Source: Ginglymostoma cirratum
Taxonomy: Eukaryota
Assembly: GCA_024137785.1 (NCBI GenBank)
Contig: JAHRHZ010000095.1
Location: forward strand, 124,001 to 188,000
DNA length: 64,000 nt
Direction of reading: 5' to 3'
A model generated the notes under the pieces. The model did no database searches and had not been told where the DNA came from. It saw only the letters and a list, made by a program, of their open reading frames with translations. Of the stretch, positions 2,737 through 62,369 are shown piece after piece. A program made the translations under genes and the position numbers. How positions within the stretch are numbered: the first letter of the stretch is position 1; every line of letters starts with the position of its first letter.

Positions 2737-2840
2737 AAAGTTCTGAGAAAGGGTCACTGGACCCGAAACGTTAACTCTGATTTTTTTCTTCAAAGATGCT
2801 GCCAACCTGCTGAGCTTTTCCAACAACTTTGTTTTTGCAC
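2737..2840 (+). mobile_element. Penelope-like pLTR fragment (subfamily B) with a mutated hammerhead core
   Basis: AAGTT-CTGAGAA-A-GGGTC-ACTG-GACCC-GAAAC-GTT-AACT at 2738-2776, followed by the arm sequence shared with the element at 61707-61923. Confidence 0.7.
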
Positions 2841-4129
2841 AAGTGCATATTGTTGGATATAGAGGACAAGTTATTTTCTCATCTCCCGCTTTCAAAGAAA
2901 TTCAGTGTAACGACAAGATTTGAAGAAACAATGGAAAATCTCACATGCTTTGTGTGATTACTGAAGACTATTTTGCTAATTTAGTTTTTCCACGTTTAAA
3001 ATATCTCTTTAATAGAATGAAGTATTGTGGTGTTAAACCAAGTTCTTCTGGTTCTCCTAGCAGCCGCTGCGAATGTGTTTTATGCAGTTTTTTAAAGGCT
3101 GTATGTCCTTTCATTCAGCTTCAGTCAGTACCGTTAAGTCACATCACTTTTGAAATCCTTACAAAGAATTATTTTTTGTATGTTTTTCTTCCCCTTTCTC
3201 TGACTTGTCTGATCCTGCCCTTTTCTTATTTCTGTTACAATTCAAGTATTTACTCTGAAACTGTTTTTTTAACATAACTACCATGGGGTAACATGCAGCC
3301 TGTTCTCCTTTAAGCCTTATTCATTAGCCCATCACCTGACGCAGAATGTCCAGTTCATTTCTGAAGGATGGAAGATGCAACTATGAACAAGTATTTTGAA
3401 ATTTATCTTCCTTTTGCGTTGTCACACTTCAGCCAAATTCACTTATTAGCCTGTTGTTTGACTGCCACCTTGGGCTGTCAACTTCACCTACAGGAAAGAG
3501 CTGAAGTGAGCCCCTTACAGATGGTTTGCAGCTGAGAGTTGACGTAGTGGAAATTGCAGGCACACTCCATAATCTTCCCACTGTGATGAGAGATGTGTTC
3601 AATGTTGTCAAGCACATTCCAGTTCCATTTCAAACTGATGAGACTGCAACAATGATTTCAGTGAGTGCAACCATAACATTGGAGTGAGGAAATGCATTGT
3701 GAAATTAAAACAATGCATACTGGCATTAAAGCGATTTGTACAACATTGTACGCAGCCAAGGACAGTGTATACTTGCAAAACATTCCATCATATGTTCCAT
3801 GGTCTTGCAGCATCTAAATCAGTGACTGTAGCATGGATCACGTAATTCATAGGAGTATTCAAGACTATTCCATCCAAAATTAGGTGCTTCTTTCAGATCT
3901 CAATCCCACTGGATCTGCCATTTCACTATATACTTTTTCATTCTGTTAACACATGCATGCTTTCCTTTAGCATACTGTTCCACTGCTAGTTACCTTCAAT
4001 CACATTGAACTGCGGGTCACATAAAACTGCCTTGTCATCTAAAATTTTATCTGCATTCCTAACTTGGTGTTTTCCTTTGTCCGTCCCTCATTGCGTCATA
4101 GCTATACTCTGTAAATATTTTATGGCAAC

Positions 4130-5060
4130 CTTTATTCAAAGGAAGGGTAGGACTGATCAGGGTCCAAATGTGAAACAACAGACAGTAGATGAGATGCTAA
4201 ATGAGTACTTTGACAGTGTTTTCCTCAACCAAGATATGTCTAATTTAGAATTTTAAGTAAGAAATTTAGAGAAATTGAATGGAATAGGGAGGAAATGCTT
4301 TAGAAAAGGCACAGCTACAAGTGAGAAATTAATTCATTCTAGACAAAATACATTAGGATCTAAGTTGCAAGAAAAGTAATTGGAGAGAAATTTAGGTAGA
4401 GGTGATAGAAGAACTAGTCATAACTTCTAATCCTTAATTCCAGGGAAGATAATAGGACTGAAGGTTGCAAATGTATATACTCTTTCAGGACAGAGCTGAG
4501 AGATAAACGAGTAATTAAAGATCTGAGGAAGCTTTGAGACAATAATCAGGAATAAAATTAATTGGCACTTTTGAAGAGTCTAGGAAATAAATGAAAAAGA
4601 GCACTGATTTGTTAAATGCAAGTTGTGCTCCATTGATTAATGGCGTTCTTAGTAATAGTGAGTGTTGAGGAGAATATTGTTGCTTTGTATATGGACTTTC
4701 AAAAGGCATATAGCTAAGTGCCACAAAATAGAAATTGTTCGCCAAATTGTAGATTATTGGTATAAAAGGGCCAATGGGCACATGGATGTGAAATTGCAGA
4801 ATGTGCAAAAAACATAGATATGAACAACTGTTTTTCAGAGTTAGCAGGTGACATTGGGAAACGCATTGATGTGGAGAACAAGTTGAGACTTCAGGAGGAC
4901 TGAAACATGTCTGTGAACGTACACTTCAAATTTGAAATTTGATTGCAGATTAGTGTGAAATGGTGCACTTTAATAGAGACAGTGAGGTGGGAAAATGTGA
5001 ACTAATTTTAAAAGGGATTGAGGTACTCGGACCCTGAGGGAGTACTTACTGGAAATTTTA
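4130..5060 (+). mobile_element. Old, heavily decayed CR1-type LINE fragment
   Basis: EMLNEYFDSVF motif and residual similarity, in the same order, to the CR1 at 470-2340. Confidence 0.55.
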
Positions 5061-5379
5061 AAGATGGCAGGACAAGTTGGAATTTTATTTTCAAATGGGA
5101 CCAGGTACCCCATTGTGTTCAAGGAGCAGGATTATATAGACCAGACATTGTCTTTGTGCATAGGGAAAGGATTTAAATTGATTAAACTGGATGCTGTCCC
5201 AGTGTTAGGGGCAGGGTTAGACAAACAGGGCATTGTCGCTGTGTTAAGAACAAGGCACTGCCTGAGTGTGAGCAGTGGCTTTATATACACTGTGGTCACA
5301 TCTGTGTGAAAGGAACTTGGTTAGAATACACTCCCCCTGTGTGAGAGGGGCAGCATTAAAGCAGACGCATGCCACTATT

Positions 5380-5670
5380 TTTAAGGACCAGGGTTAGATT
5401 GTCGAGAATGCTTGAATATGTTCAAGACAGATACAGATGGATTTCTGGTGTCTCGAGAAATCAGCAGATATTGGGAAGGTGAATTTGCGGCAGAAGCTCA
5501 GCCATAAAAGCATTGAATGACGGAGTAGGCTCAAGGGACTTTGTCTGTTTCTATTTCTTAATGTTTCAACTTGTAACAACAGAGCATAGCTTTAAAATTA
5601 GACCTATGCTTTTGAGGGACAATATCAGATAGCACTTCTTCACACACAAGGTAGTGGAAATCTGGATGAT
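5380..5670 (+). mobile_element. CR1 3'-end fragments
   Basis: Similar to the 3' tails of other CR1 copies in the window (ttcttcacacacaaggtagtggaaatctgg; tcagccat..ttgaatgacggagtaggctcaaggg). Confidence 0.6.
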
Positions 5671-5686
5671 TTCACACACTTCTGCA

Positions 5687-5885
5687 TCTCTCTCTCTCTC
5701 TTTCTCTCTCTCACACACACACACACACACACCCCTCCCCTTGCACATACTGCCCCCCCCACACACGCCCTCCCTTCACATGGCCCCCTGCATGTGCCCA
5801 CTCCCCACCCTCTCTCACGTGCCCACTCCCCTTATGCAGCGCCTCCCACCCGCATGCACACCCCACACTCTTTCTCCCTCTCATA
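5687..5885. repeat. (CT)n(CA)n microsatellite followed by C-rich low-complexity sequence
   Basis: Seen directly in the sequence. Confidence 0.9.
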
Positions 5886-60649: not shown

Positions 60650-60732
60650 CTTCACCAGGAAGGTACAGTCTTCTACTTGGAATGCGATGTCCTTCACACT
60701 ATCCCCATGTTTCCCTAAATGATCGGTCATTT
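60650..60732 (-). CDS. HPD: HPD exon, (E)[27 protein letters not shown]
   Basis: 83-bp phase 1/0 exon with TAG/GTATGA boundaries; HGDxVKDIAF motif. It is the most 5' HPD exon found in the window. Confidence 0.96.
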
Positions 60733-60929
60733 CTAAAGCAAACATAAAATATGTCAGAACACATCTCAGTGCAAAGCAAGAAGCACAATAACAAACAGAG
60801 CCAGAAGGTTACAGGTATGGATTAAGCTGTCTAGAAATGGAGACAGTAATGTCAAAATCGATTGAGTAGCCCAGACACAGTCCAAGGAGTACACACAGCA
60901 ACACATAGAGTCAGCAGTGCCAATCAAAG

Positions 60930-61480
60930 AAACATAGAATAGAATTGAGAGTGGTTACAGACTTCCAGACCATCCTGTCTATGCCAGCTCTGTGACAGGA
61001 GCTCACCGACTCACATATTCTATGTTTTCTCACCAGCACTTCAGAATTTTCCCCCTCATTGTCCAATTCTCTTCAGAAAGCCTTAGTTGAATCTGCCTCC
61101 ACTACAATCTCAGGCAGTTTATTCCAGATCTGAAACTACTCACTGTATAACAAAATGTTATCACCCTAAACCTTGAATCTGGATCCTTTTGCCAATGGCA
61201 TGTTTCTCCCAATCCACTCTGTCCAGACCACTCAAGGTTACATCCATCAAATCCCACTGAATCTCTTCCAATAAGAATAGCCTAAGCTTCAATAATATTC
61301 ACATTACTGTAGTTCTTCATGCTTGGAACCATTCTCCTAAATTTATTGTGCACCCTCTCTACTGCCTTCGTATGCTTCCTAAATGATGCTCAGAACAGGA
61401 CCCAATGCTTCAGTTGAGACTAAATCAGTGTTTATGTGGAACCTACGTCAAAGACATGCACAACGGTGTCGTTATAGAAC
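60930..61480 (-). mobile_element. CR1-type LINE 3' end, decayed
   Basis: Reverse complement of CR1 3' motifs (gtgcaccctctc; cctaagcttc; gaatctgcctccactaca..caggcag..ttccagatc). Confidence 0.7.
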
Positions 61481-61706
61481 ACATAGACCAAGCAGCACTG
61501 AGAGACTCCCAACAGGACAGACACAGAGCCAGTTGTTCAGACAGACCATTTTCACCAGGAGAAACATCTGTGCAAATCATCCAGTCTACCAATTTACATT
61601 AATAATGGAGAAGTGCAAGGAACACTCTAAAGTAGAGCTTCTAAATCGGAAGAGAGCCAACTTTAATGGGCCCAGAGGGAACCTAACCAGGGTAGAACTG
61701 AACCAT

Positions 61707-61923
61707 TAAAACCAAAAGAACTGCAGATGCTGTAAATCAGGAACAAAAACAAAGTTGCTGGAGAAGCTCAGCAGGTCTGGCAGCATTTGTGAAGGAAAAA
61801 ACAGAGTTAACATTTCCGGTCCGGGTTCTGAGGAAGAGTCACCAGACCTGGAAAGTTAACTCAGTTTTAGCCTTCACAGATGCTGCCAGACCTGCTGAAC
61901 TTCTCCAGCAACTTTGTTTTTGT
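61707..61923. mobile_element. Fold-back Penelope-like mini-element (subfamily B), ribozyme core degenerate
   Basis: ~70-bp inverted arms, ~35-nt extension containing ACTGCAGATGCTG, CTGAGGA at 61828-61834, and an imperfect 15-bp TSD (61692-61706 / 61924-61938). Confidence 0.8.
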
Positions 61924-62369
61924 GTTGAATTGAACCATGTCTGACAGAAAAACATTTCATTAGAACACTGGGCGATCTTCAGGGAAGAGATGGTTCAGTA
62001 AGGGAAAAGTAAGTGAACCAGAGCGAAGGTTCCATTTCTGGTGAAATGAGTTTGACCAGCCTTGCTTCTTTCTTTATATTTTCTATCTGTCTTTAGGTCA
62101 AATGGATTCTTCAAGTGAGATCCAGGTAAAATACCAGGTTGAGAAAAAAGTGGAGAGAAAGTAAGACTGTCAAAGGGAGAACATGAGAATACAATAGTCG
62201 TTAACATAAAAGAGAGCGCCAACATCTTCTCCTGGCACATACGTAGTAGTAAGAGGTGGTGTGGAGCCTGTTAGAGCGAAAGAAGGTGATGAAAGTTCAG
62301 AGGTGCAGGCCAGGGCTAGAAATTTAATCAGTGTTTTCCATCACTGTTCCCTGAGGAAGAGGATGCTGA

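Follow-up and report, generated by a model that had tools for sequence, protein, structure and literature searches.

Short repeats with hammerhead-like motifs recur in a 64-kb window of Ginglymostoma cirratum DNA (the whole 64,000-nucleotide stretch analysed, from contig JAHRHZ010000095.1) that contains the genes RNF43 and HPD, several of the insertions being intronic. What are these repeats, are their families related, and is their ribozyme functional? We interpret them, with good confidence, as heavily 5′-truncated pseudo-LTR (pLTR) ends of two related lineages of endonuclease-bearing (EN+) Penelope-like elements (PLEs), family B being the older and family A the younger.

Results

Repeat inventory and kinship of the two families

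Repeats were present at all nine coordinates (9/9) proposed in the initial annotation, and these nine insertions comprise 13 arms of two related families (five A arms and eight B arms; Table 1). A profile built from the nine copies retrieved the 13 arms at E 2e-14 or better, a match by construction, and gave no further match better than E 0.24 in the rest of the window. The high genomic copy number suspected earlier is supported. Insertion density in this window is 141 per Mb, and in RNA reads (X21) the A family is ~200× deeper than a unique intron, this depth being an unstranded sum over all copies. The CTGAnGA motif alone, also offered as a recurring signal, was barely above chance (68 found vs 45 ± 7 expected). 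An Rfam scan at E up to 5 returned six matches to miRNA models, all below their cut-offs (the best being a plant miRNA model), and no hammerhead match, a point against the PLE reading. Our literature search found no paper on these shark families, which may already be listed in the whale shark repeat library (PMC8455134).

The proposed relationship between A and B held: the region downstream of the ribozyme aligns between them with a score of 74, the highest of 1000 shuffles being 56, a similarity that supports one shared ancestry. Mean identity is 88% within A, 73% within B and 65% between the two, and a 13-nt tail motif is identical in both. Between A and B the ribozyme part is conserved at 27/33 positions and the remainder at 60/98, a modest excess (p = 0.034), and no conserved reading frame links the families. 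Family A is also found nested inside B, the insertion at 46802–47453 interrupting a B palindrome (46600–46800). What had been described as a single subfamily B merges two forms of stem II (GGGTC/GACCC, and A–U at 10.2–11.2), and the older wave B includes at least two such variants. As a separate observation, the B copy at 46600 was also found in related organism B. Overall, the repeats are real, very abundant and mostly ordinary, and B, the older family, has already decayed.

Table 1. Parts of the nine insertions, in positions of the window
Feature	Positions	Strand
B solo arm; GGGTC/GACCC stem II, 4-bp stem I, core broken (G8 to A)	2739..2841	+
A solo arm, tail absent; intact core 7361–7385	7289..7386	-
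B solo arm; GAGTC/GACTC variant, 6-nt loop, most of 5′ core deleted; limits approximate	39756..39858	-
B solo arm, decayed core	43849..43935	+
B palindrome, inverted arm, decayed tail; begins in ribozyme 3′ half	46600..46717	-
B palindrome, forward arm, decayed core; broken by A insertion, apparently resumes at 47468	46725..46800	+
Nested A palindrome, left target-site duplication, 15 bp	46787..46801	.
A palindrome, inverted arm, 32-nt tail (motif 46813–46825); intact core 46903–46927	46802..46928	-
400-N assembly gap within A palindrome, probably spurious (same 27-nt centre each side)	46944..47343	.
A palindrome, forward arm, tail absent; intact core 47360–47384	47358..47453	+
Nested A palindrome, right target-site duplication, 15 bp	47453..47467	.
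Second A palindrome, left target-site duplication, 14 bp	48885..48898	.
A palindrome, inverted arm, 33-nt tail (motif 48911–48923); begins in stem II loop	48899..49014	-
A palindrome, forward arm, tail absent; intact core 49020–49044	49017..49113	+
Second A palindrome, right target-site duplication, 14 bp	49113..49126	.
B solo arm; A–U at pair 10.2–11.2, 3′ core broken	56844..56943	+
B palindrome, left target-site duplication, 12 bp, 1 mismatch	61695..61706	.
B palindrome, inverted arm, ~33–36 nt tail (motif 61720–61732); begins in stem II 3′ strand	61707..61826	-
B palindrome, forward arm; 5′ core intact, 3′ core broken	61824..61926	+
B palindrome, right target-site duplication, 12 bp, 1 mismatch	61927..61938	.

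Ribozyme core and stems

The initial annotation had the ribozyme core kept in both families. This is so in A, where the core is intact in four of five arms and the described stem II (GGGT-(C/T)TAG-GCCC) and GTC triplet likewise occur in 4/5, but not in B, where both core halves are intact in 0/8 arms and the 5′ half is absent from 3/8. The stem II ascribed to B (GGGTC-ACTG-GACCC) is exact in only one of eight arms (2737) and recognisable in two more (46725 and 43850); arms 39765 and 56884 have an A–U pair at 10.2–11.2, and 61824 has an A opposite C. Similarly, the 4-bp stem I attributed to B was seen, at 4–5 bp, in two of the five B arms with a 5′ half and not in the other three, while stem I of A has 1–3 bp. 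The first four stem II pairs are intact in 4/4 A arms and in 3/6 B arms having a stem II. An unpaired base between 9 and 10.1 is present, as is a G10.1–C11.1 pair closing a paired helix II; helix III is absent, and GAAA-CG-TH with palindromic 15.2–16.2 was found in all four intact A cores and in B2737.

Structure-preserving divergence of stem II, as claimed earlier, amounts to one compensatory pair (G–C to A–U) inside B; between the families there is conservation, not compensation. When A is compared with the GGGTC form of B, three G–C pairs are identical, one pair has a one-sided change (U–G/U–A), the loop is longer, and no two-sided change was found. The changes in B cores (16/94 positions) are as frequent as those outside (69/448; p = 0.75), and this rate, equal to that of neighbouring bases, implies that B cores decayed neutrally; CG is kept at each of the two core CpG sites in only 1/8 B arms. 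Selection for ribozyme function does not act on the copies found today.

For the B founder, the consensus of 689 contig ends from a related organism restores the 5′ core and the 4-bp stem I. At both of the decayed CpG sites in the 3′ core, G occurs as the alternative letter (17–32%, in records aligned on a decayed copy), and an intact 3′ core occurs in a minority only of the related-organism contigs. A hammerhead core was thus present in the founders, directly visible in A and by way of these contig ends in B, but the support for a functional ribozyme is weaker than had been stated: since A and B show conservation only, the case for function consists of core identity, the one compensatory pair in B and analogy to tested PLE ribozymes.

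Palindromes, tails and target-site duplications

Four of the nine insertions are head-to-head palindromes and five are solo arms. A tail of 32–36 nt is carried by all inverted arms (4/4) and by none of the others (0/9). The recurring "extension motif" of the initial annotation, ACTGCAGATGCTG, corresponds to this one-sided tail; it does recur exactly at three places (46813, 48911 and 61720), though in inverted arms only, and is antisense to the ribozyme strand. Target-site duplications of 15, 14 and 12 bp surround three of the four palindromes, the maximum in 300 null pairs being 10 bp exact or 11 bp with one mismatch, whereas none was detectable around the solo arms (0/5), which counts against the PLE-end reading. 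The copy reported at 46801 is real and continues past the 400-N gap; 46802–47453 is one insertion because a single 15-bp duplication surrounds it and the same 27-nt centre flanks the gap on either side. Computed folding energies of palindromes are −163 and −135 kcal/mol, and palindrome centres differ among A copies and among B copies.

Eight of the nine forward or solo arms begin within ~5 nt of C3, and 0/13 arms start at the cut site. Arm starts near C3 are more fixed than random truncation predicts, a second point against truncated PLE ends. Conserved blocks common to A and B are mutually complementary; two-sided changes were found in 0/12 pairs of the arm–tail helix, and the arm plus tail monomer folds no better than its shuffles (z −1.0 to +0.7).

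RNA reads and the upstream sequence

At least 14,100 X21 reads diverge from the reference at 46801, where the tail ends, and continue into mixed sequence. At least 5,154 run past the ribozyme 5′ end, about half of these entering one common purine-rich sequence (pyrimidine-rich on the ribozyme strand), which makes A the terminal part of a longer element. Thirty letters of this common sequence are visible in the reads, and a search with a 17-nt upstream read motif gave only three 3-mismatch matches, all in a C-rich low-complexity patch. A pyrimidine-rich stretch (80/100 nt) also precedes the B arm at 43849 and may be a parent 3′ UTR. Many X21 reads change strand at 46894–46928. Go-back joints from ribozyme end to tail end were seen in at least 47 X21 reads and in three X2 contigs with 12–24 letters between; such head-to-tail joints speak against truncated PLE ends, but are far outnumbered by strand-changing joints among the joints listed. 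No pile-up of read ends was seen at the cut site in this unstranded poly(A) library, a weak test of cleavage. Near the short (tail-less) end, reads are split because the reference copy lacks 1 nt; run X22 has 20 reads only.

Search for the parent element

No PLE frame was detected in the window by Pfam (204 of the 236 window frames of at least 62 codons, plus six others) or by tblastn with three PLE proteins, and in the contigs searched no RT/GIY-YIG frame could be joined to A or B, which again counts against the PLE-end reading. The core pattern derived from these copies matches seven metagenome stretches, and an RT and/or GIY-YIG type frame lies upstream on the same strand in four of the five with frames listed; these loci share the core only and not the arms, a further adverse point. 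The exact A core had no match in metagenomes, nor had a looser core in viral or in prokaryote contigs. Ten matches to a 19-mer arm motif in viral contigs do not extend into a family member, a longer arm motif had no match in prokaryote contigs, and protein L004 had none in viral contigs. Separately, translation of the A arm yielded four candidates among longer proteins, none significant.

Discussion

Likeness to Penelope-like elements

The link to Penelope drawn in the initial annotation is supported by the type of minimal hammerhead core, by the pattern of inverted pLTR plus tail and by the RT/GIY-YIG frames beside the same core elsewhere. The minimal hammerheads of metazoan PLE pLTRs, as set out in passages of Cervera and de la Pena (2014; PMC4209133), have the same core, with an extra base between 9 and 10.1 before stem II, G10.1–C11.1 and a palindromic ACGT (15.2–16.2) in place of helix III; they likewise form many divergent consensus families per genome, mostly dispersed single motifs, with close pairs on opposite strands. 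Stem II is 4–5 bp here vs 7–8 bp in the schistosome families described there, and stem I of A (1–3 bp vs 4–5 bp in most minimal PLE hammerheads) counts against our reading; in D. virilis, helix I is described with 2 bp. These passages and two of the supplements of that paper do not mention sharks.

The complex EN+ PLE insertions described in sections of Arkhipova et al. (2013; PMC3846280) and Craig et al. (2021; PMC8557442) consist of an inverted pLTR, a one-sided tail of 30–40 bp and a target duplication, and may lie in older related copies. The palindromes here share the head-to-head inverted arm, the tail at one end, the duplication and insertion into an older relative. They differ in being the two ends alone (~200 bp) without a coding part, and in duplications of 12–15 bp vs 8–10 bp in the rotifer examples.

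In the anole Poseidon element PAc (Frangieh et al., 2024; PMC11167929), the ribozyme is also followed by ~70–100 nt leading to two alternative ends that bound a tail, the stretch between two RT start sites; the earlier suggestion of an RT signal in the extension is consistent with this published biochemistry. Public RNA reads lack ends at the cut site in both systems. The PAc reading frame begins inside the ribozyme, whereas A and B have no conserved frame in common. The start sites of PAc are in an AC-rich stem-loop, whereas both ends here, known from sequence alone, lie in U-rich motifs.

Reasoning from the anole element, the PLE protein would bind its own RNA, nick both target strands 12–15 nt apart and start reverse transcription at one of two sites ~33 nt apart, giving tailed or tail-less arms. 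Copying would halt within the ribozyme or a little upstream of it. The inverted arm would arise as the element inserts, through fold-back copying or through a second priming event at the opposite nick. On this reading the parent RNA kept the minimal hammerhead, which lacks helix III, has a short stem I and would require a second copy or the element protein to fold there. Dispersed copies are passengers, and the palindromes, with their two ribozyme halves on opposite strands, bury the core in a long hairpin.

Alternative explanations

The alternative that survives best, though quite unlikely, is that the ~100–220 nt units are self-standing, non-autonomous, SINE-like mini-PLEs that start with the ribozyme, yield transcripts of their own and rely for copying in trans on a PLE protein recognising arm plus tail. 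The nearly constant arm starts just upstream of the core, the insertion density, the A-family read depth and the mutually complementary blocks all suit it, as does a rotifer PLE for which a passage of PMC3846280 has pLTR sequences sufficing in trans. However, the variable palindrome centres within A and within B imply that a palindrome is not copied as a single whole, thousands of reads run upstream into common sequence, transcription from an own promoter is only putative, the summed, unstranded RNA depth is explained by copies inside host transcripts, and the arm–tail helix lacks two-sided changes and folds no better than shuffles. It is unlikely, too, that shark genomes contain ribozyme-bounded mini-PLEs in numbers around 10^5, with the 5′ end just before the core and not at its cut site, the fold acting as an RT stop or fold-back signal or as an RNA start, and the tail, paired with an internal block conserved in A and B, as an RT-binding element; if they did, PLE hammerheads would gain a role without need of cleavage.

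Non-LTR retrozyme monomers, which are head-to-tail, self-cleaving and move via circular RNA, resemble these repeats in being non-coding, hammerhead-bearing, pLTR-related and of high copy number (PMC7229834; bioRxiv 10.64898/2026.07.22.740005); they are reported in one chondrichthyan and as pLTR derivatives (bioRxiv 10.64898/2026.07.22.740005), and the go-back joints could be theirs. This origin is nevertheless very improbable: retrozymes form head-to-tail arrays, whereas the insertions here are dispersed solos and head-to-head pairs (0/9 head-to-tail, no tandem array in the window), the cores are minimal and not canonical with tertiary contacts (PMC7229834), strand-changing joints are far commoner than go-back ones among those listed, and PLEs too form partial tandems.

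That the repeats are MITEs or fold-back DNA transposons with an incidental hammerhead look, as the duplications flanking the palindromes might suggest, was already disfavoured and is barely credible given asymmetric ends with the tail on one side, duplications ranging from 12 to 15 bp, equally common solo arms, variable centres and the same core adjoining RT/GIY-YIG frames elsewhere. Retention by the host of intronic ribozymes or hairpins regulating RNF43 or HPD, for which the intronic copies and the B copy shared with related organism B could be cited, is extremely improbable, as the decay of B cores matches the background rate and CG is rarely kept at the core CpG sites.

Significance

Read as truncated PLE ends, these repeats add shark examples to a known class, PLE ends with a minimal hammerhead having already been described. 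They also correct annotation, such stumps being easily mistaken for MITEs or microRNA hairpins. The purpose of the PLE ribozyme has been called unclear (PMC11167929 and a passage of PMC8557442). The scale found here is useful: copies are very numerous and differ in age, their duplications are clean, and two alternative ends occur. Such material could serve to test how PLEs form their inverted arms and tails and which purpose the ribozyme serves.

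Insertions in the window

Thirteen arms (repeat copies of about 100 nt) of two families, A and B, make up nine insertions in the window (see table), either as solo arms or as palindromes in which an inverted and a forward arm meet head to head. Copies are 88% identical in A and 73% in B. The A palindrome spanning the 400-N gap represents a single insertion, since one 15-bp duplication encloses the gap and the same 27-nt centre lies on either side, and it is younger than the B palindrome at 46600-46800, in whose forward arm it is nested. Its two arms are 98% alike and have private changes in common, which favours one template for both; palindrome centres vary from copy to copy. 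Three of the four palindromes lie between target duplications, 15, 14 and 12 bp long (one mismatch in the 12-bp copy), which exceed the maximum found in 300 random flank pairs (10 exact, 11 with one mismatch). The same test, which for the fourth palindrome (46600-46800; decayed 10/13 flank match by eye) took the right limit before the nested insertion, gave no target duplication for any of the five solo arms. The 15-bp duplication (46787-46801) starts with CAGA and ends with TCTG, a few bases matching the letters at both element ends, a sequence likeness clear in this insertion only and compatible with nicking that is symmetric or with priming by microhomology. The solo A arm lies between the two halves of a short repeat (about 9-10 nt; 7272-7280 / 7388-7397) in inverted rather than direct orientation.

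Host exons and A and B insertions located in the window
Feature	Position	Strand	Remark
RNF43 exons	15319-26953 and large exon 27696-29327	+	match residues 109-844 of the most similar shark protein
4-hydroxyphenylpyruvate dioxygenase, last exon	about 46420-46540	-	expressed
A solo arm	7289-7386
A palindrome	46802-47453		spans 400-N gap
A palindrome	48899-49113
B solo arms	starts 2739, 39756, 43849, 56844
B palindrome	46600-46800
B palindrome	61707-61926

The DNA is that of a shark: epaulette shark RNF43 is 85% identical to the large RNF43 exon, with other sharks and rays next; residues 1-108 of the closest shark protein found no match within the window. Further minus-strand exons of the 4-hydroxyphenylpyruvate dioxygenase gene, located by short motifs, lie near 49661, 53433, 55095-55182 and 57163. 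The introns of this gene hold four insertions, of which one lies some 60 nt from the final splice acceptor. Decayed LINE-type reverse transcriptase (RT) fragments (22384-24500 and 30222-30635, both minus strand; PF09004 and RVT_1 matches) are unrelated to A and B. Another dispersed, SINE-like repeat of about 300-340 bp occurs in two copies (37962-38258 and 58347-58682; 69% alike), and two direct-repeat pairs about 4 kb apart (9300-9415/13605-13721 and 31878-32099/35635-35859; 77-79% alike) may derive from ancient duplication or represent LTR-like termini. Hammerhead positions are given in the usual numbering.

Kinship of A and B and state of the ribozyme core

The window consensuses of A and B are identical at 89 of 131 aligned positions, and their common origin is borne out by the region beyond the ribozyme, which by itself aligns with a score of 74 against a maximum of 56 in 1000 shuffles. 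Identity is higher in the ribozyme part (27/33) than downstream (60/98, slightly underestimated as the B tail consensus comprises two copies, one decayed; p = 0.034). The initial annotation had proposed two subfamilies diverging while preserving structure. From A to the GGGTC form of B, three stem II G-C pairs stay the same, U-G becomes U-A by a one-sided change and the loop is longer, no pair showing a two-sided change; inside B, however, pair 10.2-11.2 has changed two-sidedly (G-C in the arms at 2737, 43850 and 46725; A-U in those at 39765 and 56884). In X4 (contigs from a related organism, organism B), 381 contigs have a GAGTC-N6-GACTC form, and an A-like form with a different loop occurs among the loose ends. 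There are thus more than two subfamilies, as is the rule for Penelope-like element (PLE) ribozymes according to PMC4209133.

A recurrent intact core, likewise proposed, applies to A, where both halves are intact in four of five arms, but to none of the eight B arms. B core cells depart from the canonical letters about as often (16/94, one arm being overcounted by 1-2 owing to an insertion) as those outside the core (69/448; p = 0.75), and CG is kept at each of two core CpG sites in just one of eight B arms, a pattern of neutral decay after insertion. In 689 X4 and 69 X2 contigs the sequence continues upstream on the B arm at 46725, which is decayed, and the added letters bring back CUGAAGA together with the 5' side of a stem I of 4 bp. 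At the two CpG sites of this arm the alternative letter G occurs in 440/1,386 and 493/1,571 RNA reads (X21) and in 17% of X4 depth, fractions biased towards the letters of the decayed copy used for alignment. Judged from these sequences, the core of the B founder was probably intact.

Stem I of A, at 1-3 bp, is marginal, which counts against a PLE-hammerhead reading, as does the lack of any Rfam hammerhead match for these repeats. Folding predictions for the 7292 arm give -9.3 kcal/mol for a hairpin pairing the core halves together vs -1.3 for a hammerhead-like fold, so the A monomer is predicted to prefer the former. In palindromes the core lies within a predicted 90-bp hairpin, and the ribozyme halves, being on opposite strands, cannot form a dimer in one transcript.

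Arm ends and the extension

Ribozyme cleavage is disfavoured as the maker of copy ends, since none of the 13 arms begins at the cut site: inverted arms start between C3 and G12, and eight of nine forward or solo arms start no more than about 5 nt upstream of C3 (judged against upstream letters in reads and contigs). Ordinary random truncation leaves only this clustering near C3 unexplained, and on the clustering is based a less likely reading in which the 5' end would be set just upstream of the hammerhead core. A few head-to-tail joints (47 reads and three X2 contigs) count against the PLE reading and leave room for tandem forms.

All four inverted arms, and none of the nine others, carry an extension of 32-36 nt (ribozyme strand) that is added past a first U-rich end and closes at a second, similar one; 14,100 X21 reads depart from the reference exactly at its end. 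Introns near the pLTR are known in PLEs. Just after the B ribozyme (61855-61882, plus strand, and other B arms) the sequence resembles a 3' splice site (TTAAC, a pyrimidine run, CAG, then ATG), and the tails of A and B have a pyrimidine run ending in CAG, the first AG (post-ribozyme site) being absent in A. With an internal block that A and B also have in common, the shared tail motif is able to form a 6-bp helix (consensus fold of the four tailed arms), two-sided changes occurring in none of the 12 predicted pairs; predicted folding of single arms is no better than that of shuffles. In its length and its presence on one side only, the extension agrees with the PLE 'tail' (PMC3846280, PMC8557442), which in an anole element is bounded by two RT start sites (PMC11167929). 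By these analogies, the suggested role of the extension as an RT recognition or priming signal is plausible.

Abundance and RNA

The high copy number initially anticipated is evident from nine insertions in 63.6 kb (141 per Mb) and from 19,362 aligned X4 contigs, whose summed depth, as an order of magnitude and no copy number, is about 3 x 10^5 (A) and 3 x 10^4 (B) times that of single-copy flank. In X4, short go-back joints at 46849-46922 in an A arm (depth up to 611 vs 12 for single copy) may come from a short tandem repeat that arose from the arm in organism B. A reaches an RNA depth of about 14,000 per direction, compared with about 60 for unique intron (24% of the X21 run, an unstranded fragmented poly(A) library, with reads pooled from all copies). 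Read ends pile up nowhere in X21, cut site included, in a library type that would seldom reveal this; the anole study (PMC11167929) likewise has no pile-up, though that ribozyme cuts in vitro with protein.

Relationship to Penelope-like elements

No PLE reading frame lies in the window. A core pattern built from the window copies matched seven metagenome stretches; of five examined for frames, four (L002, L004, L005 and L007) have upstream frames of RT and/or GIY-YIG type, and upstream DNA in the fifth (L006) is too short for one. By Pfam, GIY-YIG is above cut-off in L004, RVT_1 is above it in L007 and below it in L002, and the L005 piece has no match. Stem II is GGGTC/GACCC in L004, as in B, and GAGTC/GACTC in the other loci. 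As their arms do not match those of A or B, these loci indicate the class of the motif and not the parent element. L002 and L007 are near-complete PLEs in metagenome contigs, the former a tandem element whose frame begins directly after the hammerhead, the latter with an 820-aa RT/GIY-YIG frame and a separate upstream frame.

A longer parent of A exists, as 5,154 X21 reads continue upstream of the ribozyme into one sequence (agreement 0.51; same in runs X22 and X2). The 100 nt preceding the B arm at 43850 contain 80 pyrimidines (<1% of window bins reach 72), and this may be a longer copy with upstream parent sequence, in a stretch that includes a CT microsatellite. A parent RT/GIY-YIG frame joined to A or B was not reached, which counts against the PLE reading; Penelope is recorded for the whale shark in a table of PMC8455134. 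The A and B repeats are genuine and well formed, and belong to a known kind, most probably PLE ends with a hammerhead.
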